Shown: in pieces, positions 1 to 54,010 of the stretch
Numbering within the stretch: position 1 is the stretch's first letter
Layout: every line of letters starts with the position of its first letter
Origin: Candidatus Buchananbacteria bacterium
Lineage (GTDB): Bacteria > Patescibacteriota > Patescibacteriia > 2-01-FULL-39-33
Direction: 5' to 3'
Assembly (NCBI GenBank): GCA_030650095.1
Contig: JAUSEE010000007.1
Location: 16,812-80,811 of the forward strand
Length of the DNA: 64,000 bases
Program-made: the position numbers and the translations under genes
Notes under the pieces: model-generated
Seen by the model: the letters and a program-made list of their open reading frames with translations, nothing else
Told to the model about the DNA's origin: nothing
The model's database searches: none

Positions 1-917
1 ACTCTTTGTAGGTTTCCGTTTGAGGTAGGCCGCCGATGATTATTCTTTCATTGGCTAAAGTGGACGGGCAATATAAGTCAAAAGTTAAATTGGTAAAAGG
101 AGTTTGAAAGCCGACCCTGGTGGGCACATTAACATTGAAAATAAATTCCTGAACGGATTGCTTGACTGATTTATAATCCAGATTGTCGCGCCTGATAAAG
201 GGAGCGAGTAAAGTGTCAAAATTAGCAAAGGCCTGGGCGCCGGCCGCCTCGCCTTGGAGGGTATAGAAAAAATTAACTATTTGTCCCAAGATTACCCTCA
301 AATGCTTGGCTGGCTTGCTGTTGACCTTTCCAGGCACGCCGCCGAAGCCTAAGCGCAGTAATTGTTGCAGATCCCAACCGCAGCAATAAACGGCCAAAAG
401 CTGCAAATCATGAAGATGCAAAGTGCCATCAACATGAGCATCCCTTATTTCCGGCGGATAAATCTTATTAAGCCAGTAATGCGAGCTGATGGCTGAAGCC
501 ACGTGATTATTCAAGCCTTGGAGAGAATAGCTCATGTTGGCGTTTTCCTTCACCCGCCAATCCAATTGCTTCAAATAGCCGTCGATAATATCATTGGAAT
601 TGATCATTTTCTTCAAATCTCTTAAACGGGCATGCTGTTCGCGATAAATTATATAAGCCTTGGCGGCCTTAACCAAATCTTCTTTGATTAAAATCTCTTC
701 CACGATATCCTGAATCTCTTCAATGGCCGGCACAGAACGCTGATGGAATTTATTATTTAAAGCGTTGATTACTTTTTCGGATAATTCAAGAGATAATTCC
801 TGGTCATCCCTATTGACCGCCTTTAAAGACTTATAAATAGCTTGAGTTATCTTGGCTTGATCAAAATCAACTATGCTGCCGTCTCTTTTTTTAACTTGTC
901 TGATTTGGCTGTCCATA
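1..917 (-). CDS. nrdD: Anaerobic (class III) ribonucleoside-triphosphate reductase NrdD, N-terminal ~305 aa; the gene continues beyond the window start
   Basis: Absent from the ORF track because the frame runs off the window edge. A minus-strand ATG at 917..915 opens MDSQIRQVKKRDGSIVDFDQAKI (an ATP-cone), followed by AKAYIIYREQHARLRD and LHLHDL..YCCGWDL..FGGVPGK..FANFD. These align with the E. coli NrdD LHIHDL / NCC / FNTQHG..PK region. Confidence 0.75.
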
Positions 918-6447: not shown

Positions 6448-9400
6448 TTACATTCTAAATATCCTACCTAAAAAATTGAATAACAAATTACCAATAACAT
6501 TTATTAAATTGAATAACTTATTGGGGCCCGACGCTTCTTCTGCTATTCCAGCTACATTACCGCCGACTGCCTCTGTTTCCAAAGCTACATAACCAGGATA
6601 ATAGGGGCAATAGCCCAAATTAAGATTGGACATGGAGAAATCAAAACCGGCTCCAGAAACACTGACTCTTCTGTTGTTGCCATTATCTGTGCAAAAACCG
6701 GCTGGCAAATTAATCTCTTGGCCCGTTAAAGAGGCTGAACCGGAAACTGGAATATTAACAGAAAAATGAGTTGTGGCCGTATCTATAGCGACATCAAAAT
6801 TAACCTTTAAATTATCCATTATATTAGAAATAATGCTGTTATAAAGAGCTGTTAAATTGCCGGTATCACCAAAATAACAGAAGCCACTACCGCAACTGCC
6901 ATCACCATCATTGGATGATATTTTATTTAATTCTACCGGATCAGCATCGGCCCCATAAGATACTGAATATATAAGGGTCTTGGGAATACTCGGATCTAAC
7001 GGATAATTTTTGATATTAGATGCGAAATTTATACCATCTGGGCGACCATAAACATTACAATTATATCTATATCTTCCTCCACGAATAAGACATCCGCCAC
7101 CTCCATCACTAACATATGTCTTACGACAATTGGGATAATTATTTTCGTCGTCCCCACAATCAAGCATATTAGTAGCTTGACCATCACTCATTAGTACTAC
7201 ATATTTATTAAGAGCTAAATTATTAGGAGTGGTGGCTGAACTGATGATTTCTTGGGCCTTCACTAAAGCATCAGATGGATTGGTTCCGCTCCAACTATTA
7301 TAGCCACTATCAGCTTCATAAGCATTAACAATGCCTCTTAAGACATCAATTTGATCAACGCCACATAAAGTATCAGAACATTGTGAACTTGATACATCAT
7401 TTTGAGCTCTTAAAACAAAACTTACCAAGCCTATTTCTGCATCAGGAATTGCCTCAAAAATATCCTCTATAGTTGTAACCAAGCTCGATTTTAAAGGAGT
7501 AAGCTTATCTTCGCCTATAACCATACTAGCTGATAAATCATTAACAAAAACTATAATCGCTTTGGGAATAGTAGCATTGATAGTAAAATTGGCTTTAAGC
7601 TTATTAAATTCATTGCAGGCCGGCACGCCGCTAATTGTAGCCAAACTAGGCGAACCGGAAAAGGCGCTTAAAGTGAGAACGGAATTATCATAAGGCGGGC
7701 AAGCTTGCCAATTGCAACTGCTCTGGCACAGATGGCCATAAGTGCCAACACCGGGTTCACATTGCTCTTGAGCTGCCTGCACTGTTCCATCTCCACACCA
7801 GCCGCCCGAATCTTGACAGACATTATTGCAAGCCCACTGGTTGGTGGAGCTCTCACCTTCTCCCCAGCCGAATGATCCGTCACTAAGAGTAGGAGATCCA
7901 TCGGGTTTTGTACCTTCACATTGTTCATTGATTGCATTCCATTCGCCGTCATGGCAATAGGGGAAAATCACGGTTTGATCAACGCAGGCGCTGGTGCAAT
8001 AATGGCGGGTGACAGATGTTAGATTCCAAAAAGGCATGAAATAATTATTCAAATTAGCTCCGGGAGGGATGTTGTGGGTGGTATAAGTTAAACCGGTATT
8101 GCCACAATCAGATGGGCCCGACAAGGGGCCAACGGCATCACCGCAATCACAAGTTTCGGTGGCTTGTTTTAAACCATCACCGCAAAGTGGCACGATACAA
8201 GTGCTGGGAAGGCCGGAACAAGTCCAATTTGGCTCTATAGCGCAAACATTGGAACAGCCATCACCGGAAAAGCCATTGCCATCATCGCAAGTTTCAGATT
8301 GGCCACGGCCGTTCAAGCCTTGGATAACACTATCGCCGCAGAAAGTGGCGGCGCTACACTGCGCGTTGCAAGTTCCGGCATTGGTGTTATTACCATCATC
8401 ACAAGCCTCGCCGGCCTGCACTACACTATCACCGCAATCCGGCAAAACACAGGCATCGGGAGCCTGATCAGGGTTATAATCATTAGGACAATTATCGCAG
8501 GCGTTGCCTACGGTATCGCCATCATTATCAGCTTGGTTGCAAGCCGACTTTTCTAGCGGTCCCAAATTGCCATCGCCGTTTCTATCAAAACAAGTAGCTA
8601 GCGAAGCGCTGGAGCCATTTTTAATACTAGCGCAATTATCACAGGCGTTGCCAATATTATCGCTGTCCGTATCAGGCTGGGTAGGTGGAGTTCCTACTTT
8701 GGGGTTATAATCATTAGGACAATTGTCACTGGCATTTAAAATGCTATCGCCGTCGGAATCAATATCAACAGAATCCGGGGTGCAAGACCAAGTAGCGCCT
8801 GTTTGGCGGCAAGAATTACCGGAAGAACAAACGACATCAAACGGACAAGTGCTGCAATCCTCATTATCTTCTAGTGTACTAGGATTGTTATCTGGACCAT
8901 CTAGATCTTCTATTCCATCACCGCAAGTGCCGGAAAATGCTCGGCAAATACTGCTAACAGCTAAAGTAAAGGGATCACCGTCCATAAATCTAACTTGTGA
9001 CCAATCAGCCGGGCGCCAAGAACCACTAATAAATTCTTTGAAAGCGTAAACATTTTTAATGACACCGTTATTATTGGCAAAATAAGCATAAACTCTGGCG
9101 GCTGTCGGACATTGCATTGATTTGGCCACATCGTTCCAACAAGTTATGGAATCATAAGGAGACTCACAGCCATCAAAACCGGAACTGGTGTTTAAAGGAT
9201 CGACAGGCAAGGCTGAACCCAAAACATTGCCAAGCGTAGCCTGCCAAGACGGCCAGACACTAAAGCTGCGTCCGGAGATATAAGTGCCGGAGGGCAAGTC
9301 GGGATAAAAATTACCGCAAGTGCCGCCGCCATAACACTCCGCGCTGTTAACGCAAGTAATAAATTTGTCATTACTGCAACGCTTTTGATTATGATAATCA

Positions 9401-12400
9401 TCTAAGAGCCAATTTATATCTTGAATATCGCCCAAACGCTTGGTATCACGGGCTAATTTGGTTTTATTGGAAGTGCAAGCTCCGGCCTCTACCGCGTCAC
9501 AATCGCTGCTGTCCCAACACTTATAAGAGTCATCGCCTTCGCAAGTGCCAATATTAGGTATGCCTCCGGCAAAAACCGAACCGACATTGAATTTCATAAA
9601 TTGAGCCATCTGAGCATAGATATTTTGCGTATCACTGTCCGCTCCCTCGCTGTAGGAAATTAAATAAATATTAGGATACAGGGCTCGAGCGTTGGTCGGT
9701 CGACCGTCTGGGCCGGCTGTGTCCGGCTCAACATTTATAGCATTAGCATAAATGGTTCGTCCTTCTTTAATAGCTTCATAACCGTTAACGGTTAAGCTTT
9801 GCGGATTGCCTTGGCGCGTAGGATCAAAATTCTCTCGATACCAAACCAGGGGTGAATAATGGTTGTCATTGGCTACCACCCTTATGCCCACGGCATCGCT
9901 TTTGTCGGTTCTTTGCAATAAAAATTCTTTTTTAAACGGATTACCGCCATAAACTATGGTGCTGGTATCCAAGTCCGGCAAATCGTCGGCCTCGCCCTCT
10001 TCGCCGTTATCACGACAATAATAAACTTCAAAATTGGTATTAGGACAAGGCGTGCCGCCGCAATTATCGGCTGCGTCACGATAAGGGAATGATCTGGGAG
10101 CTGGCCAAGGATTGGAACATAAAAATATTTTAATATTAACCTCTTTTTCTTTGGTAGAAGATGCGCCTTCGCCAGAGGGAGGATTTTGAGTGGCTCCAAC
10201 TGTTAGGACATCTTGGCCGTCTATAGCCCCAGTTACTCGGGCGCTTCTTAAATTAAGCCACTGATCACCGGAATAATCCGTTAGATCAAAATCAGATACG
10301 GCTAAATCAAACTTTGGCAAACCAGCTACATCCCAATTAAATCCGCCTTCGGCTTTGATTAAAAAGCCAGCGTCATTAACTGCCCAAGCCATATAAAGAT
10401 GCTGATTCTTGGCCAAATTAGGATCAATGGTGTTAGCGCCATCAACCCTTAAATAAGGAAAGTCGTAATCTTCGGTCGGTGCATCAACATTGGAACCGGA
10501 AGAAATATCGTTGTCGTAGCCATCGGCTGTATGAAGGCCGCAATCATCGCCCACGCAGAAAAAATTATCATCGTATTTTTCTTCGCCTCTGGGCCAGATT
10601 TCCACTTTAACATCACTGAGCTGGCAATATCTTTGAATTGTCACTTCTTTGGAAATTTTAGGCACATTATTTACAATCGGATCAAAATCTCCTTCGTAAA
10701 CACTTATTTTATATCTTTTATTCTTTTCCCAATAGCCGTTTTTAATGAAGCTGTAAATATGGCTATCCTGATTCATATATTCCAATCTTTCTTCAAAATT
10801 AGTGGCGTTTTGACTAACCACCGAATAACCGGCGCCGCAGCCATCACTTGAACCGGCTGAAGCGCTACTAGTAAAAAATTGGGAGATAGCTAATTTTATT
10901 TTGGAAATAATCTTGCCCCAGATAGTATCATCCGACATGGCTAAAGCGTCTCTTTTGCAAATAAAAATACTATTGGCGCTAATATCGCCTCGTTTGGCTA
11001 AAACCTGCCAAATGCCATTGGAACAATTATTCATATTAATGATTACTGCCGGATCATTAACCGCCGAGAAGGTCCAGGAGAAACTGTCGGCTTGACCGGC
11101 TTCCACTAAATCATTGCCGCAAACGGAATTATAAGCGACATTTGAGCCTTCTAAAAGACAAGTGCTGCCACAGCCGTCGTTAGTATTTTTATTGCTGTCA
11201 TCGCAATCTTCGCCTTGTTCTTTGATGCCATTGCCACACACTGGAACATTGGCAGAGGAACCACTGGGACGACCGGATTCTTTTAGACAAATACTGGAAC
11301 AGCCATCGCTGGAAGTGGTATTGCCATCATCGCAATTCTCGCCATATTCAATACTGGCGTTGCCGCAAAGTGATCCCCACCTATCGCTAGAGCCCTCCCA
11401 CAAACAATTCGATCCACAGCCATCATCACCATTGGCATTTCTATCGTCGCATTCTTCTTTGGCTGTTTCTACCACGCCATTGCCGCAAGAGGCTGTATTA
11501 TTATTGCCTTCATTATGGCAGGTGCCGCTGCAATAAGCAGATCCTGCCGGACACTCGGCAAACCGTCCGCCACATAGGTTAAGCAAGGGATTTAAAAGAC
11601 AACTGGCACCACAAACACCAGCTTGTTCTGTCCAAGGATAAATACCCGGTTCGCATTCCTCGCCTCCGCCTTCACCGGTGCTATTAAAATTCAATCTACT
11701 TAATTGGTTATTATTCCAAGCTATCAATCCATCTTCCCCGCCTTTTACAACTACCCTGTACTTTGATCCAATTTCATAATCAGTTGCTGATTTAACAGTG
11801 GTTTTTCTGGATAATTCCAAACCGCCGGAAGTTGGGGGCAAAACCGCCTCCAGTGTCTTAGGAGATAAATCAAACACCGGACAATCATTATTGCTGGTGT
11901 ATAAATATCCAACCTCGTTAGAAGTTAGAGCTCTGTCGTAAAATCTGACATCATCAATTAAGCCATTCCACATGCCGTGAATATTGTTATCAGCCCGATG
12001 GCCGATTCTACTTGGAACACCGGGGCTATAAGCTACAGATGCTGGTACATTAGTTATATCTTGAGCAACCAGTGCTCCATTTATATATAGTCTAACAGAC
12101 TGGCCCGGCTGATAAACACCCACGACATGCGTCCATTTATTTAAATTATCACTAAAGAAATTATTTTTATTGGCAATAGCAAAATTACCACTGCTATCAT
12201 AAACAATAAACTGAAAATGATCGGGTGGCGGACAAGGGCTTTCCTCATTTCCGGTACAACCCCAGAGATCACCCAATAAAAATCCTCGCTTCTTAGCGTC
12301 ATCTTCGTCATAATCATAATTAGAAAATACTACCCGGCCTAAGGGACTTTCCGGAGCCATCGGTTTCACCCAAGCCGAAACAGTTAGAGCGCCGGTGACT

Positions 12401-15400
12401 TTCAAATTATTATTTGTTATCTCAACATATTGTCCGGCATTACCTCGAAAGTTAAGCGCTTGGCCAAAATAGCCGGCAACATAAGAGAGACCTTTCACCA
12501 CCGCCTCATTGGAATTGCCAGAATTATCACTGGCGCTATTATCAAATTGATAATAAGCTTCGGCGTTAGTGCATTGATAAAGTTTAACATTATCGTTAAT
12601 CCTAAATGAGCTCATTTTAGCATCAATGTTAAAATCAATATTGATCAGCCTGTCTTCAAAATGAGTCAAATCCCTAGGACTGTATTTTATGACTGCCAGT
12701 TCGCCATAGCCAACCTGCAAATGGCCATAACCCCAGCTGTTTCCAACGTCAGCTCTGATATTGGTTTCGCCGTCTAAGCCGGCGGTGGCAGTTTGGACCG
12801 GATCAATTAAGCTATCGCTAAAGCCGCCGCAAATGCCAGTTTGAACATTTAATTTGGTAATGGAAGCTATGAGATCGCCGGTTTCACTGCTGTCGCCTAA
12901 TTCTATAAGCGATCGCCAAGTCCAATTAAGGAGACAGCGAGCTAGAATATTACAATTGCTGGCCTGAGGAAAAGCGTCATACTGACTGGTTTGATTGACA
13001 AATTCCAAGAAATTTTCGGCCGGGGTAACTTGAACCTCGCTAACCTCGCAAGTCTGAGTGCTGGTTTTAAAAACCCAATAATAATCATCAAAGTTATCGC
13101 CGTTATAATCCCAGCCGTCGCTTACCATAGGAATAATACTGTTTTCGGTTAACAAGACGCCATCAGGAATACCATCGCCGGAGCTATCGGCTCCGCCTAC
13201 CCCATCGGGACCGCCTAGAATAATCACCCGATACCACATATTAGAATCCAAATACTCATCAGCGGTTGCCTCTCCTTCCAAATCTTGGCTATTTATATCA
13301 ATAACAAAACCTTCGGCTGTGCCTTGGCCAAATTGATTGCTGCCGGCCAATAAATCTTCAACATTAACACTATGGCTATAGGTAAATATCCTTAAGCTGG
13401 AAGCTTCGGCTATTTTGATGCTTTTACAAGCCGGGAAAGCATCTTCAAAATCATCGCTGCCGTCGCATCTTTCCACAATAATATTGCCGTTGGCCGTGTC
13501 ATAGCCTTCGGTAATATTAGTGACTGTGTTTAGGGTTAAGCTGGGATTATCCATATCACGGCTGAACCTAGCAGCAATAAGAGCATTGCGGCAAGCATCT
13601 TTGGAATTAATCCAAGGAGTAGGGCTTTGGATAGATCCTCTGGAACAGAAAGCGCTTTCCATAACCACTGGATTGGTAAAATCAGTAATCACCCGGCAAT
13701 AATCATTTTGGCCGGTTTGCGTTAATTCGGCCAACACTTTGGTGAAACCAGGAATAAGATTATAATTTTCGCCGTAAGCCGTGCCTATTTGCTCCGGCTC
13801 TCCGCCAGTATTGGTTATTTGAACCTTAGATTCGTCTTCCGAAGACCAATCCCAATTATAAGCCCAGGGATCGATCATCAAGCAGACATTATCCTTACTG
13901 ATAAGATCAGTGCTGAATTGCTGTGTTTGGAAATAATAATTTAAAGTTTTAGGATCGGGATTGCATTCCGGACAGCCCGGATCACAATAAGCATTGGTTG
14001 TCCTGGTTTGAAAATTCCAGCAATAAACCGCATCAGTTATGCCGGAGACATTGCAAAATCTGTCGGCTACGACTTGATTATTAACAGCCATATCCACATT
14101 AAACAAACTCTTGATGCCACTGGTTAAAACAATTTTATACCAAGAACCAGCTTCAAAAGTAGCCGGACTGCTTATAGTGGGACTGCCGAATTTAAAATAA
14201 TCCCTTACGCCGTTGTCGGCCGGATAAACTGCAACCTCCCCTGTCACCAGAGTACAACTGGTGCCTTCTTTAGTGGTGCATTTATAAACTCTAACATGAT
14301 CTTCAACTGATTGGGCATTCATTTTTTGAGTGAACCGCGCCGAGATAGTGGCATTAATGCAAGCCTTAGGATCCTGGATTGATAATTCCGGATGAATAAT
14401 TGGATCCCAACCTTCGGTGGCTCCGACACCTTCATACCACGGAGCAGGACTGGGCAGTTTCTGATTGGGATAACAAGAAGCGACACGGCTGCAATCTTCT
14501 ATGACTTGCGGCGGTGTAAAACCATAGCCGTTGCCGTAGATAAAGGCCCAAGCAAAAATAGATTGGACAGCCGGATCAACTGTTACTCCCGGTGAACAAG
14601 TCGGATCAGTTTTTGTGCAAACAGCATCATCCCAACTACCGCTAACCGGGCAAACTTCGGTAGCTGTACAAGGAGAGAAATCGTCGCAACTTCTGGAGAA
14701 CCCAGGTTCGCAAGCATTGACTACCACTTGGCAGGTACAACTTTGGTTGGGATCGCAAAATAATCCGGTGTTACAAACATTGGCCGCCGAACAAACACTG
14801 GCTCCAGGTTCACCGCAAGGATCGCCTATTTCGCCACGGCTGATTATAAAATTATAATAATTGCTATATTCTGTACCATTATAAATCCTAATACTGGTGG
14901 TGCCTACGCCGCTTTCCGGCACTATGTCGCTAGCTAAAATGGAGCTAAGCCAGTCTACTTCCGGACTGGAAAAAATATCCGGTTGGAAATTCCACTGGAC
15001 TTGGCCGTCGGGAGAAGTGGGAAAATTATTACCGGCAATTTCTATCGGATTAGGATTAACCCCATAAACAGGGTCAATGGAACAAATACCCGGACGTTCT
15101 ATAGTGTTAACTGTAAATTCCTTAGAGTTGCTGGTTAAGCCGATATCATTTTCCACCACAACTTGATAATTATCCAAATCCACAGTGGGAACTTTGAAAA
15201 CAATTTGAGTATCGGTCCAGCCATTGATACAATCAGTGGCCGCATTGATTTCGCCATAAGCCACTATAACATCATCTTTTATCAGCATAACCGATCCAGG
15301 ACCAGCGCCAAAATGTCGTCCCCAAATAGTAATATAATTATCAACAGCTCCGTTATTCGGCTCCAGACTGTAAATAACCGGAGCAAAAGCACAAGTGCCA

Positions 15401-16380
15401 TCGTGCAGACAAACACCGGAAGCACAATCACTATCCTCGGTACAGCTGCCACCATCGCAAGCGCCGCAATAATCATCACCTAAAACAGCCGGATCGCCGC
15501 CGCAATCAACGCCGGTTTCGCCTTGGTCTTGAACATTATTAAAACAATGCAAGGGTTTGATAATAGTTTTGACTTCGCGAGATTCAATTGTCTTATCACC
15601 AGATAATAAGGCTGATATTTTAGCTTTATACTGATCATTAATAGCATAAGAGAGTGAATTCCAAGAAGCAAAAACATTATTAACAATTTCCTGATCTGTC
15701 GGCACATCAGAAAACGGGCTCTGAGCGGTAAAAGAACCGGCCAAAGGCGCCGTAAATAATTCCATGCTGACAACAGTGCCATCGCGATTTTTGGCATAGC
15801 CTCCCACCTTTAAATTTTCGCTATTGGGTATTCTAGCCACGCCGCTAAAAGCGGAGCCGATAATCCTCGACCAAGGAATGGAATCATCCTTGAATTTATT
15901 TATATAAGTGTATTGATTAGAAGTGCTGGGCGTACAAGGCGGATTATCGCAAGTGGGCGTACAAGGCGGCGTGGGGCAAGAATCAGTGGGACAATCCGCG
16001 CCCTGGCAGGTTGGTATGATACTGATGACAAAAGTAGCGATAAGAAAAGCCGACAAAATAATTATCAGTCCGATAACAGCCGAAATTAGTGTTCTTTTGG
16101 CTTTAGCTATTTTGTTAGCATCACCACCAGCCGTCATCCAAAGATAACCGCCCCACATAATTATAATTACTGCCACCAAGCCTAAAAATCCTAAGATAAA
16201 CCTGATGATATTAATTATAGTAATTCGTAGATCACCTTGAGCTAAGCCAACGCCGGCGGCGTTTTCCAAGCCAAACCGATCTTGAGCTAAAGCTAAATTA
16301 AAAATGCCAAAAACGCCAATAACCACAAAAGCTATAAGCGTTGATAAAATAATTTTTTTAATTGTCTTATTTAATCTCAT
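6448..16380 (-). CDS. Giant (3310 aa) secreted, membrane-anchored multidomain surface protein. It has a VirB2/TrbC-pilin-like N-terminal 2-TM module, a Cys/Pro linker, Cys-rich (Myxococcus-type) repeats, a LamG/concanavalin-like domain, TSP3 repeats and a vWA domain.
   Basis: Single 9.9-kb ORF. N-terminus: ...NLALAQ DRFGL..AAGVGLAQGDLR..FILGFLGLVAVIIIMWGGYLWMTAGGD..KAK..VIGLIIILSAF. LamG end motif LIDDVRFYDRALTSNEV at about nt 11.9-12.6 kb. CGNG..E.CDDGN..DGC repeats at about 11.1-11.5 kb and 8.1-8.4 kb. TSP3 repeats DSDGD..DNCPNDYNP at about 8.45-8.8 kb. vWA MIDAS motif DLSASM ... VVLMSDGQATN at about 7.17-7.56 kb. Confidence 0.8.
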   Translation of the reverse strand: MRLNKTIKKIILSTLIAFVVIGVFGIFNLALAQDRFGLENAAGVGLAQGDLRITIINIIRFILGFLGLVAVIIIMWGGYLWMTAGGDANKIAKAKRTLISAVIGLIIILSAFLIATFVISIIPTCQGADCPTDSCPTPPCTPTCDNPPCTPSTSNQYTYINKFKDDSIPWSRIIGSAFSGVARIPNSENLKVGGYAKNRDGTVVSMELFTAPLAGSFTAQSPFSDVPTDQEIVNNVFASWNSLSYAINDQYKAKISALLSGDKTIESREVKTIIKPLHCFNNVQDQGETGVDCGGDPAVLGDDYCGACDGGSCTEDSDCASGVCLHDGTCAFAPVIYSLEPNNGAVDNYITIWGRHFGAGPGSVMLIKDDVIVAYGEINAATDCINGWTDTQIVFKVPTVDLDNYQVVVENDIGLTSNSKEFTVNTIERPGICSIDPVYGVNPNPIEIAGNNFPTSPDGQVQWNFQPDIFSSPEVDWLSSILASDIVPESGVGTTSIRIYNGTEYSNYYNFIISRGEIGDPCGEPGASVCSAANVCNTGLFCDPNQSCTCQVVVNACEPGFSRSCDDFSPCTATEVCPVSGSWDDAVCTKTDPTCSPGVTVDPAVQSIFAWAFIYGNGYGFTPPQVIEDCSRVASCYPNQKLPSPAPWYEGVGATEGWDPIIHPELSIQDPKACINATISARFTQKMNAQSVEDHVRVYKCTTKEGTSCTLVTGEVAVYPADNGVRDYFKFGSPTISSPATFEAGSWYKIVLTSGIKSLFNVDMAVNNQVVADRFCNVSGITDAVYCWNFQTRTTNAYCDPGCPECNPDPKTLNYYFQTQQFSTDLISKDNVCLMIDPWAYNWDWSSEDESKVQITNTGGEPEQIGTAYGENYNLIPGFTKVLAELTQTGQNDYCRVITDFTNPVVMESAFCSRGSIQSPTPWINSKDACRNALIAARFSRDMDNPSLTLNTVTNITEGYDTANGNIIVERCDGSDDFEDAFPACKSIKIAEASSLRIFTYSHSVNVEDLLAGSNQFGQGTAEGFVIDINSQDLEGEATADEYLDSNMWYRVIILGGPDGVGGADSSGDGIPDGVLLTENSIIPMVSDGWDYNGDNFDDYYWVFKTSTQTCEVSEVQVTPAENFLEFVNQTSQYDAFPQASNCNILARCLLNWTWRSLIELGDSSETGDLIASITKLNVQTGICGGFSDSLIDPVQTATAGLDGETNIRADVGNSWGYGHLQVGYGELAVIKYSPRDLTHFEDRLINIDFNIDAKMSSFRINDNVKLYQCTNAEAYYQFDNSASDNSGNSNEAVVKGLSYVAGYFGQALNFRGNAGQYVEITNNNLKVTGALTVSAWVKPMAPESPLGRVVFSNYDYDEDDAKKRGFLLGDLWGCTGNEESPCPPPDHFQFIVYDSSGNFAIANKNNFFSDNLNKWTHVVGVYQPGQSVRLYINGALVAQDITNVPASVAYSPGVPSRIGHRADNNIHGMWNGLIDDVRFYDRALTSNEVGYLYTSNNDCPVFDLSPKTLEAVLPPTSGGLELSRKTTVKSATDYEIGSKYRVVVKGGEDGLIAWNNNQLSRLNFNSTGEGGGEECEPGIYPWTEQAGVCGASCLLNPLLNLCGGRFAECPAGSAYCSGTCHNEGNNNTASCGNGVVETAKEECDDRNANGDDGCGSNCLWEGSSDRWGSLCGNASIEYGENCDDGNTTSSDGCSSICLKESGRPSGSSANVPVCGNGIKEQGEDCDDSNKNTNDGCGSTCLLEGSNVAYNSVCGNDLVEAGQADSFSWTFSAVNDPAVIINMNNCSNGIWQVLAKRGDISANSIFICKRDALAMSDDTIWGKIISKIKLAISQFFTSSASAGSSDGCGAGYSVVSQNATNFEERLEYMNQDSHIYSFIKNGYWEKNKRYKISVYEGDFDPIVNNVPKISKEVTIQRYCQLSDVKVEIWPRGEEKYDDNFFCVGDDCGLHTADGYDNDISSGSNVDAPTEDYDFPYLRVDGANTIDPNLAKNQHLYMAWAVNDAGFLIKAEGGFNWDVAGLPKFDLAVSDFDLTDYSGDQWLNLRSARVTGAIDGQDVLTVGATQNPPSGEGASSTKEKEVNIKIFLCSNPWPAPRSFPYRDAADNCGGTPCPNTNFEVYYCRDNGEEGEADDLPDLDTSTIVYGGNPFKKEFLLQRTDKSDAVGIRVVANDNHYSPLVWYRENFDPTRQGNPQSLTVNGYEAIKEGRTIYANAINVEPDTAGPDGRPTNARALYPNIYLISYSEGADSDTQNIYAQMAQFMKFNVGSVFAGGIPNIGTCEGDDSYKCWDSSDCDAVEAGACTSNKTKLARDTKRLGDIQDINWLLDDYHNQKRCSNDKFITCVNSAECYGGGTCGNFYPDLPSGTYISGRSFSVWPSWQATLGNVLGSALPVDPLNTSSGFDGCESPYDSITCWNDVAKSMQCPTAARVYAYFANNNGVIKNVYAFKEFISGSWRPADWSQVRFMDGDPFTLAVSSICRAFSGTCGDGIEDLDGPDNNPSTLEDNEDCSTCPFDVVCSSGNSCRQTGATWSCTPDSVDIDSDGDSILNASDNCPNDYNPKVGTPPTQPDTDSDNIGNACDNCASIKNGSSASLATCFDRNGDGNLGPLEKSACNQADNDGDTVGNACDNCPNDYNPDQAPDACVLPDCGDSVVQAGEACDDGNNTNAGTCNAQCSAATFCGDSVIQGLNGRGQSETCDDGNGFSGDGCSNVCAIEPNWTCSGLPSTCIVPLCGDGLKQATETCDCGDAVGPLSGPSDCGNTGLTYTTHNIPPGANLNNYFMPFWNLTSVTRHYCTSACVDQTVIFPYCHDGEWNAINEQCEGTKPDGSPTLSDGSFGWGEGESSTNQWACNNVCQDSGGWCGDGTVQAAQEQCEPGVGTYGHLCQSSCNWQACPPYDNSVLTLSAFSGSPSLATISGVPACNEFNKLKANFTINATIPKAIIVFVNDLSASMVIGEDKLTPLKSSLVTTIEDIFEAIPDAEIGLVSFVLRAQNDVSSSQCSDTLCGVDQIDVLRGIVNAYEADSGYNSWSGTNPSDALVKAQEIISSATTPNNLALNKYVVLMSDGQATNMLDCGDDENNYPNCRKTYVSDGGGGCLIRGGRYRYNCNVYGRPDGINFASNIKNYPLDPSIPKTLIYSVSYGADADPVELNKISSNDGDGSCGSGFCYFGDTGNLTALYNSIISNIMDNLKVNFDVAIDTATTHFSVNIPVSGSASLTGQEINLPAGFCTDNGNNRRVSVSGAGFDFSMSNLNLGYCPYYPGYVALETEAVGGNVAGIAEEASGPNKLFNLINVIGNLLFNFLGRIFRM

Positions 16381-34078: not shown

Positions 34079-34154
34079 TGGTCGGAATAGATGGATTTGG
34101 ACCACCGTCCTCTCTGCACCGGGCAGAGCGCTCTACGAGCTGAGCTATATCCAG
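34079..34154 (-). tRNA. tRNA-like gene with anticodon CGG (Pro-like) and a non-canonical anticodon loop (C33, U37); CCA encoded
   Basis: Reverse complement: CTGGATA TA GCTC AGCTCGTA GAGC G CTCTG CCCGGTG CAGAG AGGAC GGTGG TCCAAAT CCATC TATTCCG A CCA. The anticodon stem is perfect but the loop is CCCGGTG, and there is one acceptor mismatch at 2:71. Confidence 0.5.
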
Positions 34155-42699: not shown

Positions 42700-42714
42700 T
42701 CTTACCATCAACCC

Positions 42715-42742
42715 TTGCCAAAAATACAAATATCTGTTACAA
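42715..42742 (+). promoter_or_regulatory. Sigma70-like promoter of the tRNA-fMet/Ile2/Leu cluster
   Basis: TTGCCA, a 16-nt spacer and TACAAT. The predicted +1 falls at or near the mature tRNA 5' end (42748). Confidence 0.55.
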
Positions 42743-42747
42743 TTACT

Positions 42748-42819
42748 CCGCGGGGTAGAGCAGTAGCAGCTCGCCAGGCCCATAACCTGGAGGTCGTGGG
42801 TGCGAATCCCACCTCCGCA
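42748..42819 (+). tRNA. Initiator tRNA-fMet (anticodon CAU); the 3' CCA is not encoded (ACAA)
   Basis: CGCGGGG TA GAGC AGTAGCA GCTC G CCAGG CCCATAA CCTGG AGGTC GTGGG TGCGAAT CCCAC CTCCGCA A. It has the C1/A72 mismatch and is closely similar to E. coli tRNA-fMet. Unusual features are C33 and G55. Confidence 0.75.
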
Positions 42820-42924
42820 ACAAGTGGCTCTTGAATTAATCAAGACATGGCAAAAAAACAGAGATAATTATTTGTACGCGGTAATTCGCACGGGCAGAAG
42901 CAAGATGAGCCTATGGGCGAAATC

Positions 42925-42971
42925 GAGCGTCGATAAATACGAGCAAGCGCGAGTATTTAGCGCTGCCCAGG
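42925..42971 (+). repeat. tRNA-associated hairpin repeat, copy 1
   Basis: GAGCGTCGA-TAAATAC-gagcaagcgcga-GTATTTA-GCGCTGCCCAGG. It lies within the 150-nt spacer between tRNA-fMet and the duplicated fMet 3' end. Confidence 0.8.
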
Positions 42972-42975
42972 ACAA

Positions 42976-42995
42976 GAATCCCACCTCCGCAACAA
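42976..42995 (+). repeat. Direct duplication (20 nt) of the tRNA-fMet 3' end (GAATCCCACCTCCGCAACAA)
   Basis: Identical to 42803..42822. It is followed at 42999..43027 by a perfect 12-bp-stem hairpin, AATCGCTCGCTC ttat GAGCGAGCGATT. Confidence 0.85.
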
Positions 42996-43029
42996 ATACC
43001 AATCGCTCGCTCTTATGAGCGAGCGATTT

Positions 43030-43101
43030 GGCAGGGTAGCTCAGTGGTAGAGCAGCGGACTCATAAGCCGTTGGTCGCGGGTTCAACTCCCGCCCCTGCT
43101 A
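43030..43101 (+). tRNA. tRNA with anticodon CAU, most similar to tRNA-Ile2 (lysidine) but possibly elongator Met; CCA not encoded (ACAA)
   Basis: GGCAGGG TA GCTC AGTGGTA GAGC A GCGGA CTCATAA GCCGT TGGTC GCGGG TTCAACT CCCGC CCCTGCT A. The variable loop TGGTC and the T-arm match E. coli ileX. Confidence 0.7.
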
Positions 43102-43213
43102 CAAGGAAAGTATTTTAAAACACATTACTGAAGTATTAATATTAAAAACAAATAATACTGGCGGGAGTTGAACGGGCAGAAACGAATCAAGCCGAACTTA
43201 GTGAGGCGAAGAT

Positions 43214-43260
43214 GAGTGTCGATAAATGCGAGCAAGTGCGAGTATTTAGCGCTGCCCAGG
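43214..43260 (+). repeat. tRNA-associated hairpin repeat, copy 2
   Basis: GAGTGTCGA-TAAATGC-gagcaagtgcga-GTATTTA-GCGCTGCCCAGG. The G/U wobble is tolerated only in a plus-strand RNA fold. Confidence 0.8.
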
Positions 43261-43292
43261 GCGAGGAAATCAGGCGAAGCCTGATGACGAGA

Positions 43293-43325
43293 TCCCGCCC
43301 CTGCTACAAGGAAAGTATTTTAAAA
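43293..43325 (+). repeat. Direct duplication (33 nt) of the tRNA-CAU 3' end plus 19 nt of downstream flank
   Basis: TCCCGCCCCTGCTACAAGGAAAGTATTTTAAAA, identical to 43088..43120. Confidence 0.85.
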
Positions 43326-43354
43326 GAATTATTAAGTTATTAATATTACTTTAA

Positions 43355-43436
43355 GCCGAAGTGGCGGAATTGGTAGACGCGCACGACTCAAAATCGTGTA
43401 TCGCAAGATGTGAGAGTTCGATTCTCTCCTTCGGCA
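43355..43436 (+). tRNA. tRNA-Leu (anticodon CAA); CCA not encoded
   Basis: GCCGAAG TG GCGGAATTGGTAGACGC ... CACGA CTCAAAA TCGTG, with a long variable arm, GAGAGTTCGATTCTCTC and CTTCGGC A. Confidence 0.85.
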
Positions 43437-43511
43437 TAATAACAGACTAATCTTTTTTTTATTATTTTAAATCTGCTATAATAATCTTATTATACTTTTA
43501 ACCTTAAATAT

Positions 43512-51374: not shown

Positions 51375-51763
51375 GGGGATGTATTGTTTCGATGGGAGGC
51401 CTTAAATTTGAAGTTAGCAGGACGAGATTGGCACTTGCTCGCAAACTAAATGCCAAAGCACATAAGTGCAAACAACTTTTTAAGCAAAGTAAAATCTGCC
51501 TTTGGTGGATTTGCTTTCGCTCCTGCTGTTGCTTAATTGCTTAACAGCCATCGCCCTGCCCACGCCTAGGTAGGCAAGAAGCGGTGTTATAACTCTAGGA
51601 CAGATAGGCCAGTCTATTCGAACAGGCCTATTTAAATTATTTCGAATAAAGCCGAATCTGTTTTGTTCTTTTAATAGGATCCGGCTAAAAAAATAAAAGA
51701 AATAATCTTGTACACTGACTTTTGATTTACTTCCAGACAGGAGCTCATTACTCCTCATCTCCA
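51375..51763 (+). ncRNA. ssrA: tmRNA (ssrA), starting on the nucleotide after the smpB stop codon. The predicted tag reading frame ends ...FGGFAFAPAVA-TAA. The 3' end lacks an encoded CCA.
   Basis: 5' end GGGGATGTATTGTTTCGATGGGAGG (compare E. coli GGGGCTGATTCTGGATTCGACGGGA). Internal ORF gca aac aac ttt tta agc ... gct gtt gct taa. The 3' T-arm-like AGGAG-ctcatta-CTCCT precedes CATCTCC, which pairs with the 5' GGGGATG. Confidence 0.7.
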
Positions 51764-51809
51764 CTAAGTAATTAGCAGGCATTAATAAATAATTTTTATA
51801 ACACAGCCG

Positions 51810-52996: not shown

Positions 52997-53021
52997 AAAA
53001 CCGCCCGGGAGGCGGTTTTTG
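52997..53021 (+). terminator. Rho-independent terminator after rplT
   Basis: AAAACCGCC cggga GGCGGTTTTT. Confidence 0.85.
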
Positions 53022-53031
53022 CGTCTATCTA

Positions 53032-53060
53032 TTGACTTTTGCGCCGTTTAATGATAAAAT
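53032..53060 (+). promoter_or_regulatory. Sigma70-like promoter (extended -10) upstream of the tRNA-Asp locus
   Basis: TTGACT, a 17-nt spacer and tgaTAAAAT. The transcript would include the two tRNA-Asp 5' fragments and the intact gene. Confidence 0.5.
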
Positions 53061-53114
53061 CATATTTGATACTTAGATTAAGTATTTTTTATTTAAAATA
53101 TTTAAAAACACTTT

Positions 53115-53169
53115 GGAGACGTAGCTTCCGCCTCGGCTTCGCCTTAGGCGAGACGGGCAGCTGGTTAGA
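53115..53169 (+). pseudogene. tRNA-Asp 5' fragment A, carrying a 31-nt insertion in the D-loop
   Basis: GGAGACGTAGCT-[tccgcctcggcttcgccttaggcgagacggg]-CAGCTGGTTAGA, then sequence unrelated to the tRNA. Confidence 0.6.
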
Positions 53170-53213
53170 ATACATTGGCGGAATCAAATAAAGTCACTTA
53201 ATTTCATACATTT

Positions 53214-53288
53214 GGAGACATAGCTTCCGCCTCGGCTTCGCCTTAGGCGAGACGGGCAGCTGGTTAGAGCGCTTCCCTGTCACGGAAG
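53214..53288 (+). pseudogene. tRNA-Asp 5' fragment B (through the anticodon arm) with the same 31-nt D-loop insertion and the same 14-nt upstream flank as the intact gene
   Basis: aatttcatacattt GGAGACATAGCT-[31 nt]-CAGCTGGTTAGAGCGCTTCCCTGTCACGGAAG, then it diverges into the insert carrying hairpin-repeat copy 3. Confidence 0.6.
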
Positions 53289-53339
53289 AGGGTTGCGTAG
53301 CAACGGGTAGAAGCGAGCTAGGAGCTATGCGACTACAGC

Positions 53340-53385
53340 GAGCGTCGATGAATGCGAAAAAAATGAGCATTCAGCGCTACCCCGG
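53340..53385 (+). repeat. tRNA-associated hairpin repeat, copy 3
   Basis: GAGCGTCGA-TGAATGC-gaaaaaaatga-GCATTCA-GCGCTACCCCGG. Both stem positions that differ from copy 1 changed in a compensatory way. Confidence 0.75.
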
Positions 53386-53429
53386 AACGAGGGTTTCCCT
53401 CGACTGGACAATTTAATTTTCATACATTT

Positions 53430-53503
53430 GGAGACGTAGCTCAGCTGGTTAGAGCGCTTCCCTGTCACGGAAGTGGTCGAGGGTTCAAGTCCCTTCGTCT
53501 CCG
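53430..53503 (+). tRNA. tRNA-Asp (anticodon GUC); CCA not encoded
   Basis: GGAGACG TA GCTC AGCTGGTTA GAGC G CTTCC CTGTCAC GGAAG TGGTC GAGGG TTCAAGT CCCTT CGTCTCC G. Confidence 0.85.
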
Positions 53504-53513
53504 CGAATAATTA

Positions 53514-53541
53514 TAAAAACCACCCTTGCGGTGGTTTTTAT
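53514..53541. terminator. Bidirectional rho-independent terminator after tRNA-Asp
   Basis: AAAAA CCACC cttgc GGTGG TTTTTAT. Confidence 0.8.
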
Positions 53542-53545
53542 AATT

Positions 53546-54010
53546 TTATTCAGACTTTATATCGACGGCGTTTTGTAAAGTTTTTTCAAACACGGCCGCC
53601 GCAGTAGCGATGACGACGGAAATAAAAGTAGCCAAAATACCTATGGTGATAAAGCCCGCCGGATCGTCATCTTTATTATGAAATATCCTGATGTATAGTG
53701 CTGCCATTACAATTGAGATACTCAGTATGATTGCGCAATATTTTATAATCCTTAAAGCTTTCACCGAGCTTAGTGAGAATACTTTGTTTTGCCCGATGTA
53801 TCTGAGTAATTTAAACGCTTGATACAGCGCAACAAAAAATGGGATAGACGCTATGTACATATACATTATGAACGGATCAGAGTAAATGCTAAACAGGTCT
53901 AAGTTTACGGCTCTCCCCTCAGTCAGAGGAAATTGAATCATGACAAAGAGCACCAAGATGCCGATGAGTACAATGACTGCCTGAAGAAATATTATTGAGC
54001 CTCGTTTCAT
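53546..54010 (-). CDS. Hypothetical 4-TM membrane protein
   Basis: ORF with hydrophobic helices. Confidence 0.4.
   Translation of the reverse strand: MKRGSIIFLQAVIVLIGILVLFVMIQFPLTEGRAVNLDLFSIYSDPFIMYMYIASIPFFVALYQAFKLLRYIGQNKVFSLSSVKALRIIKYCAIILSISIVMAALYIRIFHNKDDDPAGFITIGILATFISVVIATAAAVFEKTLQNAVDIKSE

Follow-up and report, generated by a model that had tools for sequence, protein, structure and literature searches.

A structured, non-coding repeat family beside tRNA genes of Patescibacteria and its possible spread as a selfish element

Within a 64,000-nt stretch of a Candidatus Buchananbacteria contig (the window), two tRNA genes are each followed by a short insert and then by a second copy of their own 3' end, which raises the question of what these inserts are and how they came to lie there. 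The best reading of our data, to which we give a probability of about 0.5, is that they belong to a non-autonomous, non-coding, selfish repeat family of Patescibacteria whose route of spread we infer; the window holds three copies and two internally deleted remnants.

Element copies in the window and their two architectures

The duplications of the tRNA 3' ends are exact in both cases (20 nt at tRNA-fMet, 33 nt at tRNA-CAU; Table 1), as had been noticed from the sequence, and the longer one runs on into a diverged continuation with 74% identity, up to 43144/43348. An assembly artefact, which had been named as a possible cause, is unlikely because matching architecture recurs across dozens of independent assemblies. 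The conserved hairpin reported at three places was recovered by the pattern GTCGATRAATRC..GYATTYAGCGCT at 42929, 43218 and 53344, and in none of 100 shuffles; it corresponds to helix Pb of the core described below. The third copy is present at the tRNA-Asp locus as predicted, but it does not follow a duplicated tRNA 3' end; it sits upstream of the intact gene, within an incomplete second copy of tRNA-Asp that covers the 5' two-thirds.

Table 1. Features of the element-bearing regions (positions within the window)
Feature	Position	Strand	Details
Sigma-70-like promoter	42715-42743	+	TTGCCA-17-TACAAT, TG-extended; just 5' of tRNA-fMet
tRNA-fMet, intact initiator	42749-42821	+	CAU; C1-A72 mismatch; T loop TGCGAAT
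20-nt direct repeat, left copy	42804-42823	+	tRNA-fMet nt 57 to 3' end plus 2-3 nt
X'1	42877-42891	+	decayed antisense copy of tRNA-fMet 3' strand
X'1, exact part ATTCGCAC	42884-42891	+	8 nt; complements unusual T loop GTGCGAAT; shares first two bases of core copy 1
Core copy 1, three-way junction	42890-42972	+	P2 GGGCAG/CTGCCC, Pa, Pb; 82.1 bits
Z1, right copy of 20-nt direct repeat	42976-42995	+	duplicated tRNA-fMet 3' end
tRNA-CAU, intact	43030-43102	+	elongator Met or Ile2; T loop TTCAACT
33-nt direct repeat, left copy	43088-43120	+	tRNA-CAU nt 60 to end plus 18 nt trailer; diverged continuation to 43144
X'2	43160-43173	+	perfect 14-nt antisense copy of tRNA-CAU nt 53-66 (GGCGGGAGTTGAAC); abuts core copy 2
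Core copy 2	43172-43261	+	80.0 bits
Unit 2 3' domain	43262-43292	+	hairpin TCAGGCGAAGCCTGA at 43270-43284
Z2, right copy of 33-nt direct repeat	43293-43325	+	diverged continuation to 43348, just 5' of tRNA-Leu
tRNA-Leu(CAA)	43355-43436	+	
Promoter-like site	53032-53060	+	5' of pseudo-tRNA-Asp copies
Pseudo-tRNA-Asp copy A	53115-53169	+	nt 1 to about 24; 31-nt D-loop insert 53127-53157, ending ACGGG|CAG
Pseudo-tRNA-Asp copy B	53214-53294	+	leader repeat, nt 1-43, D-loop insert, AGGGTT; same 31-nt insert as copy A, 53226-53256
Mini-hairpin GCGTAGC	53295-53301	+	5' of core copy 3; GCGAAGC-type in other type 2 copies
Core copy 3 (type 2 insertion)	53303-53386	+	P2 GGGTAG/CTACCC; 86.8 bits
T-arm-like hairpin GAGGGTTTCCCTC	53389-53401	+	remnant of host pseudo-tRNA T arm
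tRNA-Asp leader TTTCATACATTT	53418-53429	+	second copy at 53202-53213
tRNA-Asp (GTC), intact	53430-53504	+	

Two architectures occur, and in both each element leaves an intact tRNA beside a partial duplicate. Type 1, to which window copies 1 and 2 belong, has the order full tRNA, trailer/terminator spacer, X', core, 3' domain and Z, where X', which adjoins the core on its 5' side, repeats tRNA nt 53 to about 72 in antisense, and Z repeats in direct orientation the stretch from tRNA nt 57/58 through the trailer end. In type 2, represented by window copy 3, a second copy of the tRNA 5' part lies upstream of the intact gene and has the core inserted into it, either at nt 48/49 or in its D loop; at type 2 loci, including tRNA-Asp, the duplicated part comprises the leader and the 5' part, and the insertion point itself bears no duplication. 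The 31-nt D-loop inserts of pseudo-tRNA-Asp copies A and B can be read as an internally deleted element of the D-loop type.

At type 1 loci X' always adjoins the core, begins opposite G53 and is 8-19 nt long, and the direct repeats, 9-79 nt in other loci, take in as much as 40-57 nt of trailer and terminator sequence particular to the locus. Duplicated pieces begin at most 12 nt 5' of the tRNA, and recent copies end at the terminator T-run. Both inverted arms, X' and Z, match the local tRNA and differ at every tRNA. An origin of X' from the tRNA's own 5' strands is ruled out in the tRNA-Lys units, where X' has A opposite T64 and the tRNA's own 5' strand has G; X' is therefore copied from the 3' strand. 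For 19 of the 24 type 1 loci, the segment that starts at G53 and includes all of X' forms a single rod, with X' as its outer arm and the tRNA terminator loop as its apical loop, at most 3 nt from the midpoint. An asymmetric bulge made by tRNA nt 73-76 recurs in this rod, at the 3' processing site. A clean terminator-centred palindrome is not seen in window copies 1 and 2. The units at locus L039 have their own, differing terminators.

Core structure, distribution and turnover of the family

The 46-nt hairpin originally described as the conserved element is real, yet it forms just one arm of a bigger structure, a three-way-junction core of 70-95 nt with three helices whose outer helix is GGGCAG/CTGCCC in copies 1 and 2 and GGGTAG/CTACCC in copy 3. 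The claim that compensatory stem changes reveal selection on the hairpin was checked by covariation analysis and holds across 62 copies, with 95.5% of predicted-pair cells being standard pairs and two-sided (compensatory) changes in 16 of 20 pairs, both figures coming from an alignment fitted to the model, a bias in its favour; RNAalifold on a MAFFT alignment, independent of model fitting, finds compensatory change in 12 of 20 pairs. None of 500 shuffles equalled the observed covariation, and slid controls pair at only 28-41%. The family thus shows what marks a conserved structured RNA, covarying secondary structure across diverged sequences. The argument that G-U pairs point to the plus strand is right in direction and modest in weight (27 G-U against 13 A-C cells). 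Rfam gave no match on the elements, either at the gathering threshold or at E <= 10 (42700-43500 and 53000-53600), nor did models of known self-cleaving ribozymes (hammerhead, hairpin, twister, pistol, hatchet, HDV-like) at E <= 10 in both window regions; the Intron_gpI model, which detected a genuine intron at locus L034, had no match on the elements at E <= 10. The element family is apparently undescribed and previously unannotated.

Our genome scan yielded 50 loci, 47 of them with real copies, most genomes being represented by 8-kb pieces; model R1 recovers 62 copies in these 47 public loci and the window, with up to three per 8-kb locus. About 46 of the loci are labelled as or resemble Patescibacteria, locus L035 placing the family in the class of the Saccharibacteria, and scan matches in Mesorhizobium, Acidobacteriota and Puniceicoccaceae were rejected as chance (<= 20 bits or no R1 match). 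A metagenome scan with the compact-variant pattern yielded four loci, three of them apparently already in the set. These copies bear out the original prediction of a family of miniature, ORF-less, tRNA-tied elements. All tRNAs within 500 nt of an element lie on the same strand as the element, at least 15 tRNA species adjoin elements, and the core usually lies 55-75 nt from the tRNA; in the window, only 3 of the 8 tRNA/tmRNA genes carry an element. Copies also occur at sites other than tRNA genes, namely between protein genes, as in the spacer of a dnaK-like gene and dnaJ, and inside an ORF. The last, a single case at locus L045, lies in frame within a 402-aa glycosyltransferase ORF whose frame stays open; several frames of the core are open, and a protein search with the peptide from this copy returned no candidates.

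Comparison of the same loci in relatives confirms that the inserts are gained and lost. For example, locus L051 has a gap of 6 nt between tRNA-CAU and tRNA-Leu and an fMet-CAU-Leu cluster without the element, together with a decayed type 1 copy (43 bits) 3' of tRNA-Asp; locus L054 has neither an element in the cluster nor one at its bare tRNA-Asp, and locus L053 carries a type 2 copy resembling that of the window. The side of tRNA-Asp that carries the element differs among close relatives, and decayed or truncated copies occur at loci L003, L033, L005 and L026 as well as in window pseudo-copies A and B. Copies come, go and decay over times comparable to the divergence of related genera. Cores at different sites can be nearly identical (Gly-CCC and Gly-UCC, 99%; Ser-like and Lys, 93%; Asn D loop and dnaK-dnaJ spacer, 94%; two sites in one genome, 96%), which could reflect gene conversion between existing copies, not new insertion. 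Orthologous copies retain 83-99% identity in the core and 72-94% in X' against 49-73% in the spacers, and X' is still complementary to tRNA-Lys at 18-19 of 19 positions even where Z has lost its T-stem part. This pattern of sequence conservation suggests selection in place, so that a host function is possible for at least some copies.

The window copies are co-oriented with the tRNAs and lie in the fMet-CAU-Leu operon or the tRNA-Asp leader, which lends some support to the proposal of an RNA derived from the tRNA precursor. The promoter 5' of tRNA-fMet is the only plus-strand consensus match placed to drive the fMet-CAU-Leu cluster, and no sigma-70-type consensus was found on the plus strand inside this cluster or between the Asp-leader promoter and tRNA-Asp. 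The region from the 53032-53060 site to tRNA-Asp would form one leader.

Possible routes of spread and competing readings

As a selfish repeat, the element would spread without an enzyme of its own. Its two inner junctions both fall in the universally conserved T loop, with the end of X' opposite G53 and the start of Z at A58, and therefore any tRNA gene could partner an existing copy by recombination or copy-choice. The tRNA-specific part of X' would arise at the locus itself, through snap-back copying at the terminator hairpin. An equivalent route would be homologous (Campbell-type) integration of a circle of about 200 nt (Z, trailer, X', core), which would yield the type 1 order; a circle of leader, tRNA nt 1-48, core and nt 49-60 would yield the type 2 order. 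Neither a circle nor an empty and a filled allele within one species was seen. The window copies would then be transcribed as tRNA-precursor spacers or leader and removed by tRNA processing, so that their sites would be safe havens.

On the other hand, the strong covariation and sequence conservation across phyla, and the persistence of orthologous units while flanking DNA is saturated, would also be expected of a host-selected family of tRNA-linked small RNA genes, a possible but rather unlikely alternative. The units might undergo RNase P/Z-type processing, the X'/Z helix mimicking the cognate acceptor/T-stem minihelix, the three-way-junction core replacing the T loop and N73(CCA) forming a single-stranded tail; or X' might pair with the upstream tRNA 3' strand in read-through transcripts, the rod controlling precursor processing or turnover. 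A role of this kind is favoured by X' remaining the complement of the tRNA where Z has decayed, by the strict co-orientation with the tRNA and its co-transcription context, by the excess of G-U over A-C on the sense strand, by the bulge of tRNA nt 73-76 in the rod at the 3' processing site and by the different terminators of the L039 units. It fits poorly, however, with presence, absence and change of side at the same tRNA in close relatives, with decayed and truncated copies, with copies within an ORF and unrelated spacers, with the lack of a consistent promoter in front of units and with the limitation to 3 of the 8 tRNA/tmRNA genes in the window.

The original prediction had seen in the repeats the attL/attR signature of tyrosine integrases, and a miniature integrative element might indeed be mobilised in trans by a site-specific recombinase, either a tRNA-targeting tyrosine integrase or an Xer/integron-type enzyme acting on folded single-stranded DNA. 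The X'/Z hairpin would then imitate the tRNA gene duplex, like CTX-phi attP or integron attC, and the repeats would be attL and attR. Both junctions lie within the T loop, reportedly a classical crossover site of integrases, and the order tRNA, spacer, X', loop, Z is what we would expect from integration at a folded-hairpin site. A tRNA 3' direct repeat stands at both ends with an intact tRNA at one of them, and a complete tRNA and a duplicated 3' end bounding an insert are a known signature of integrative elements (PMC9897764). We nevertheless consider this reading improbable. No integrase, transposase or reverse transcriptase was found by Pfam among the 30 window ORFs scanned, and the inserts carry no ORF; clustering of neighbouring ORFs revealed no protein family in more than 5 of the 50 loci and none enriched near the element. 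A pattern scan of viral contigs gave 0 matches, and BLASTN of insert 2 found nothing in plasmids and one match in phages (E 3e-3 over 34% of the query), which we read as chance. The repeats, moreover, hold up to 40-57 nt of local trailer and terminator, which a foreign element would not bring, at least 15 different tRNAs are used, and type 2 copies are 5'-part duplicates or simple insertions (nt 48/49, D loop, ORF). Decayed att scars, also proposed, are likewise unsupported, as the repeat may be a tRNA 5' part and the sites include the D loop, nt 48/49, spacers between protein genes and an ORF. The integrase model leaves the antisense tRNA segment and the terminator-centred palindrome unexplained.

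Also improbable, though a new class of bacterial RNA if true, is an agent that works at the RNA level, with X' as a target-matched guide pairing with the 3' strand (nt 53-72) of its cognate tRNA across the junction where the unit holds a spare tRNA 3' end. Such an agent could be a trans-splicing or repair ribozyme, or a processed, CCA-tailed, perhaps charged tRNA-minihelix mimic, with its flanks re-templated from every new tRNA via a dumbbell-shaped circular intermediate.

A new small intron-like or ribozyme element that acts on RNA and inserts itself into loops exposed on folded transcripts (D loop, variable/T junction, T loop, mRNA hairpins), with DNA copies arising via reverse transcription and recombination, is very improbable. 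Its most striking form would combine X' as guide, a catalytic core and Z as spare 3' exon, a trans-splicing layout that could replace the tRNA 3' end. The insertion points are indeed loops at the tRNA elbow, orientation is strictly sense, the ends of duplicated pieces resemble primary transcript ends, X' spans the junction (nt 53-57 plus 58-72) like an internal guide, and the reading frame is left open by the ORF copy, but this last is one case only and several core frames are open anyway. Against it, no intron or self-cleaving ribozyme model matches, group I and II introns are much larger than the core, and no reverse transcriptase occurs in the 30 window ORFs, nor an enriched protein family in the 50-locus clustering. 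Every interrupted tRNA copy adjoins an intact one, and splicing is therefore unneeded and probably absent. Patescibacteria are rich in introns according to PMC13011429, in which, however, group II introns are given as not detected in this phylum.

Several further identities were rejected: a group I intron (no Intron_gpI match; units outside intact tRNAs), a hammerhead (GGACGAAAC and CUGAUGA-like strings, with wrong motif order, no U4 and CGAAA being T-loop sequence), a hairpin ribozyme (AGAA/GUC motifs fall within helices), a box C/D or H/ACA guide RNA (D box absent), a retroviral-type primer binding site (CCA not covered by X'), a TnpB omega-RNA or IS110 bridge RNA (nuclease or recombinase absent nearby; mismatched guide logic), an archaeal bulge-helix-bulge intron (motif cannot form from the flanks), a restriction-like cut at palindromic TTCGAA (X' also matches non-palindromic T loops), a minus-strand gene (tRNA-like fold absent; G-U bias favours the plus strand) and a MITE (intrinsic terminal inverted repeats absent, X'/Z being local; repeats of 9-79 nt; no duplication in type 2). 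In the window and the 50 loci of 8 kb, no related autonomous IS with a transposase was seen.

A selfish, tRNA-associated repeat would add a widespread, strongly structured, unannotated RNA-like motif to Patescibacteria, whose genomes are so tiny that every conserved non-coding element is notable, and it explains many of the partial tRNA genes by which tRNA annotation is confused there. It would also provide a case of tRNA-end duplication without an integrase, in which the flanks (antisense arm and direct repeat) are copied from the target around the gene's terminator, pointing to copy-choice or small-circle spread with the universal T loop as portable homology. Should the RNA be functional, the family would consist of small RNAs matched to tRNAs, for which no counterpart is known.

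Comparison with known systems

Integrative elements reported from tRNA genes, such as phages and ICEs with their attL-attR ends, share with the present family one complete and one partial tRNA copy flanking the insert and a repeat that runs from the T loop to the 3' end. They measure 9-23 kb or more (PMC9897764), whereas the inserts here are 150-190 bp. Unlike them, the element has no integrase, its repeat includes local trailer and terminator, it carries an antisense tRNA copy, and it also occurs with 5'-part duplications and at non-tRNA sites.

The palindromic elements reportedly present in Rickettsia (RPE), like MITEs and REP/BIME repeats, are short, ORF-less, multicopy, lineage-restricted and hairpin-forming, may lie in frame in protein genes and occur in or beside stable-RNA genes. 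Multiple copies, absence of ORFs, hairpin formation and, in a single case, an in-frame position in a protein gene are all found here. Unlike those repeats, however, our element is a covarying three-way junction across several candidate phyla rather than a species-level palindrome, its X'/Z arms are copied from the target instead of being element-borne, and it has no fixed-length target duplication and no parent IS. Integron attC and CTX-phi attP resemble it in forming a long imperfect palindrome at a gene's 3' end with asymmetric bulges, and in the integrated order of inverted arm, loop and direct arm; here, in contrast, neither IntI nor another dedicated recombinase was seen, the stem consists of tRNA sequence and the loop is the structured core.

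Group I introns of Patescibacteria tRNA genes share the phylum and the kind of host gene, and locus L034 has both. As described by Nakagawa et al. 2026 (PMC13011429), they occupy the anticodon loop (e.g. 35/36), match Rfam Intron_gpI and self-splice. Unlike these introns, the element has no Intron_gpI match, is smaller by a factor of 3-4 and is located next to the gene or within duplicate copies. The Neurospora Mauriceville/Varkud retroplasmids and tRNA-derived SINEs gain tRNA sequence by template switching, homologous recombination at a tRNA gene leaves direct tRNA repeats, and they depend on a reverse transcriptase of their own kind of system, which is eukaryotic or organellar. Capture of tRNA sequence and tRNA repeats are common to them and our family, whose repeats, in contrast, carry genomic flanks and which has no linked reverse transcriptase. 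Finally, the units differ from tmRNA in being without a T arm hairpin, a tag reading frame or an Rfam tmRNA/tRNA match, and the likeness between ..GGAUUCGAAC-helix .. helix-NGGAC here and ..GGAUUCGAC-helix 2a .. GGAC-T arm in tmRNA is by eye only; as in tmRNA, t-elements and mascRNA-type mimics, an end resembling a minihelix could attract RNase P, RNase Z and the CCA-adding enzyme.

A structured core beside tRNA genes

The duplications of the 3' ends of tRNA-fMet and the second CAU tRNA are exact, the longer one extending at 74% identity to 43144/43348, and the associated hairpin pattern has three matches in the window (42929, 43218, and 53344) against none in 100 shuffles. The original prediction of mini-inserts bounded by tRNA ends is therefore genuine, and the element is more complex than described: the hairpin is conserved but constitutes one arm (Pb) of a three-way junction, which also comprises an arm Pa holding tandem G-A pairs and an outer helix, P2 (GGGCAG/CTGCCC; in copy 3, at tRNA-Asp, both strands differ, giving GGGTAG/CTACCC).

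Features of the window at and around the tRNA loci
Feature	Position	Strand	Basis or extent
Single ORF	6448-16380	-	3310 aa
tRNA-Thr(GGU)-like gene	34082-34154	-	Rfam only (37.5 bits)
tRNA-fMet	42749-42821	+	ARAGORN and Rfam
tRNA-fMet 3'-end duplication	42804-42823 = 42976-42995		20 nt
Hairpin between duplicated fMet end and tRNA-CAU	43001-43028		12 bp, 4-nt loop
Second CAU tRNA	43030-43102	+	ARAGORN and Rfam
tRNA-CAU 3'-end duplication	43088-43120 = 43293-43325		33 nt
X' of insert 2, and its tRNA match	43160-43173, 43081-43094		14 nt, perfect
tRNA-Leu(CAA)	43355-43436	+	ARAGORN and Rfam
tmRNA	51375-51766	+	ARAGORN and Rfam
First partial tRNA-Asp 5' copy; D-loop insert	53115-53169; 53127-53157		31-nt insert
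Second partial tRNA-Asp 5' copy; D-loop insert	53214-53294; 53226-53256		31-nt insert
tRNA-Asp	53430-53504	+	ARAGORN and Rfam

A three-block pattern (ACGGGNAGAA..GTCGAT..AGCGCTNCCC) retrieved 50 loci from GTDB contigs representing one genome per species and none from viral contigs. A covariance model built from 49 cores then gave 62 copies across the window and the loci together, with extra tandem copies in nine loci (at most three within 450 nt). RNAalifold on a MAFFT alignment predicted 20 pairs, 12 of them compensatory. The compensatory stem changes proposed from three copies hold in the 62-copy alignment, where 95.5% of cells are standard pairs and 16 of the 20 pairs have changed on both sides; no covariation measure is attained by any of 500 shuffles, and when partners are shifted by 1-3 columns, pairing falls to 28-41%. 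The structural evidence for the core is thus strong. The argument from G-U pairs for the sense strand (27 G-U versus 13 A-C cells) is only modest in strength. The element matched no Rfam family, even at E <= 10, and we found no description of it in the literature.

About 46 of the 50 loci carry Moranii-, Doudna-, Kerfeld-, Uhr-, Buchanan-, or Saccharibacteria, Parcubacteria, or Patescibacteria labels, or are similar sequences under doubtful labels; the Mesorhizobium, Acidobacteriota, and Puniceicoccaceae loci are chance matches (model scores of 20 bits or less). Some records are named Gammaproteobacteria (L007, L019, L023, L032, L037, L040, L044, and L045), Bdellovibrionales (L001, L008, L038, and L049), or Fimivivens (L033). 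These names look wrong: the element is present at every one of these loci, and L019 is syntenic with the Buchananbacteria window from tmRNA to tRNA-Asp. A Moraniibacteriota contig (L012) contains a LOOT RNA match (164-298, - strand, 59.1 bits) as well as three element units in tandem that lack an adjoining intact tRNA.

Flanks copied from the local tRNA

All tRNAs within 500 nt of any copy, of at least 15 species, lie on the same strand as that copy. In type 1 units, such as window copies 1 and 2, an intact tRNA is followed by a trailer, usually with an intrinsic terminator, then by X', the core, a 3' domain, and Z. X', which the original prediction missed, is antisense to the T loop of the neighboring tRNA and abuts the core in every type 1 unit; together with the invariant AC of the core it is complementary to the tRNA from G53 onward over 8-19 nt. 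The duplicated tRNA end, Z, begins at nt 57/58 and extends to the tRNA end; recent copies carry a further 40-57 nt of trailer and terminator. X' follows odd T loops (TGCGAAT, TTCAACT, TTCAAAT, and TTCGATT), that of insert 1 (ATTCGCAC) matching the unusual fMet loop TGCGAAT. Opposite T64, X' has A whereas the 5' strand of tRNA-Lys has G; This marks X' as a complement templated on the 3' strand and rules out an origin as a copy of tRNA 5' strands.

From tRNA G53 to the X' end, 19 of the 24 type 1 loci fold into one long rod. Its apical loop is the terminator loop of the tRNA itself and lies no more than 3 nt from the midpoint of that stretch; tRNA nt 73-76 usually form an asymmetric bulge of 4-5 nt. 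X' is thus the outer arm of a terminator-centered inverted repeat. Were the loop to fall at any point of a 50-nt interior, chance would yield this in ~14% of loci; the observed excess is large, although not every locus is independent. Window copies 1 and 2, in an operon without a terminator, form no clean rod.

The third copy predicted at tRNA-Asp is present but built differently from copies 1 and 2, with partial tRNA-Asp 5' duplicates upstream of the intact gene. In this type 2 architecture, the core, preceded by GGGTY and a small hairpin and followed by NGGAAC/G, is simply inserted in a partial duplicate tRNA beside an intact one. In both partial copies the D loop holds a hairpin insert whose terminal ACGGG leads into the tRNA's CAG, matching the start of the core motif, and the second copy runs on through the anticodon arm into the core; the insert looks like an internally deleted element. 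The pseudo-tRNA-Asp of L019 has a homologous insert ~100 nt upstream of a core at 11-80 (- strand). Type 2 sites are of three kinds, namely nt 48/49, the D loop (L037, L025, L030, and L027), and sites not related to tRNA. The cleanest nt 48/49 case, L043, reads leader and nt 1-48, insert, nt 49-60, then leader and full tRNA-Val. Not all copies abut tRNA genes: two lie between a dnaK-like gene and dnaJ, and one within a reading frame.

Several units and neighbors stand apart. In L024, L026, and L009 (7795-7888), type 1 units whose X' and Z resemble tRNA-Pro or tRNA-Ser lack an intact upstream tRNA, their upstream arm opening GTTC.. and then diverging; in L009 the real tRNA-Pro is found at a distance of 3 kb and has a unit of its own. 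In L003 a hairpin, CTGCCTACCG(TA)GGCAGGC, separates X' from the core that begins at 6897, and in L007 (- strand) it stands in place of the core in the second of the tandem units, after 2230-2313. It could be another small element or the product of a deletion. In the window, the perfect hairpin AATCGCTCGCTC/GAGCGAGCGATT following the duplicated fMet end has a terminator-like score on the - strand, and the tRNA-Thr(GGU)-like gene between tRNA-Cys and tRNA-Leu(UAA), missed by ARAGORN, has a single mismatch in the acceptor stem and a T loop, TCCAAAT, that is non-canonical.

Gain, loss, and genomic setting

The window lies in a Candidatus Buchananbacteria MAG, its GlyRS being 100% identical to P0001. 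Three syntenic relatives (GlyRS 82-86% identical) were compared with it. The fMet-CAU-Leu cluster has elements after fMet and CAU in the window but none in L051, where the CAU-Leu gap is 6 nt, or in L054, and is not covered in L053; tRNA-Asp has an upstream type 2 unit in the window and L053, a decayed downstream type 1 unit (43 bits) in L051, and none in L054. Decayed, truncated, or interrupted copies in L003, L033, L005, and L026, with the two D-loop remnants of the window, complete a picture of gain, loss, and decay. Core similarity is mixed: between genomes, cores beside the same tRNA often resemble one another (Glu 99%, Lys 94-100%, Pro 91%), which looks like vertical descent, but similarity also crosses sites (Gly-CCC and Gly-UCC 99%, Ser-like and Lys 93%, Asn D loop and dnaK-dnaJ spacer 94%, two sites in one genome 96%). 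Orthologous units retain 83-99% identity in the core, 72-94% in X', and 70-90% in the 3' domain, versus 49-73% in spacers and flanks, which is near saturation for AT-rich DNA.

Consensus matches, which are not proof of function, place one promoter-like site immediately before tRNA-fMet and no other on the + strand within the cluster; transcription of inserts 1 and 2 as spacers of the operon is thus expected. From a second such match upstream of the pseudo-Asp copies, these and copy 3 would form a leader of ~360 nt. The 30 window ORFs scanned are housekeeping genes, including ParA/ParB, RelA/SpoT, GlyRS, SmpB, FtsZ/FtsA, and DprA, and when all ORFs of the 50 loci were clustered no protein family recurred in more than five. 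No enzyme gene is linked to the element.

Origin and relation to known elements

Both inner junctions lie in the universally conserved T loop, so that ~8-11 nt are common to any tRNA gene and to the X' end and Z start of any copy. Copy-choice or recombination through this homology between a tRNA gene and an existing copy, joined to snap-back copying at the terminator hairpin, would generate the type 1 order, fixed junctions, locus-specific arms, and palindrome. Alternatively, homologous integration of a small circle could yield either order equally well, type 1 from Z, trailer, X', and core and type 2 from leader, nt 1-48, core, and nt 49-60, and would also account for arrays ending in a truncated unit. 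A host function, as a tRNA-minihelix mimic or a rod governing precursor processing, is kept alive by the in-place conservation of orthologous units and by perfect X' arms persisting where Z has decayed. The attL/attR-like reading, suggested by the duplicated tRNA ends, fails several defining tests of a classical integrase site, and no integrase, transposase, or reverse transcriptase is among the 30 window ORFs. An intron or ribozyme has no positive support beyond geometry.

Together, these data define a conserved, covarying, sense-oriented, tRNA-gene-linked family, which we place as a novel variant among the small non-autonomous repeat elements of bacteria, unusual in combining target-templated flanks with an RNA-like core that is conserved; less probably, it belongs to an altogether new category. 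It differs from the group I introns reported from Patescibacteria tRNA genes, which lie in the anticodon loop. Such an intron (Rfam, 69.8 bits) coexists with a type 1 element at one gene in L034 (4133-4487), a tRNA therefore missed by ARAGORN. The copy inside a 402-aa GT4 glycosyltransferase ORF (L045, 3239-4447, - strand) is read through in frame (..YEGYDRPKESPPPPCLKEGVAKQRAEASGARVDECDPGSIQRCPGTGGGLKGDYLLYVG..), as are Rickettsia palindromic elements.
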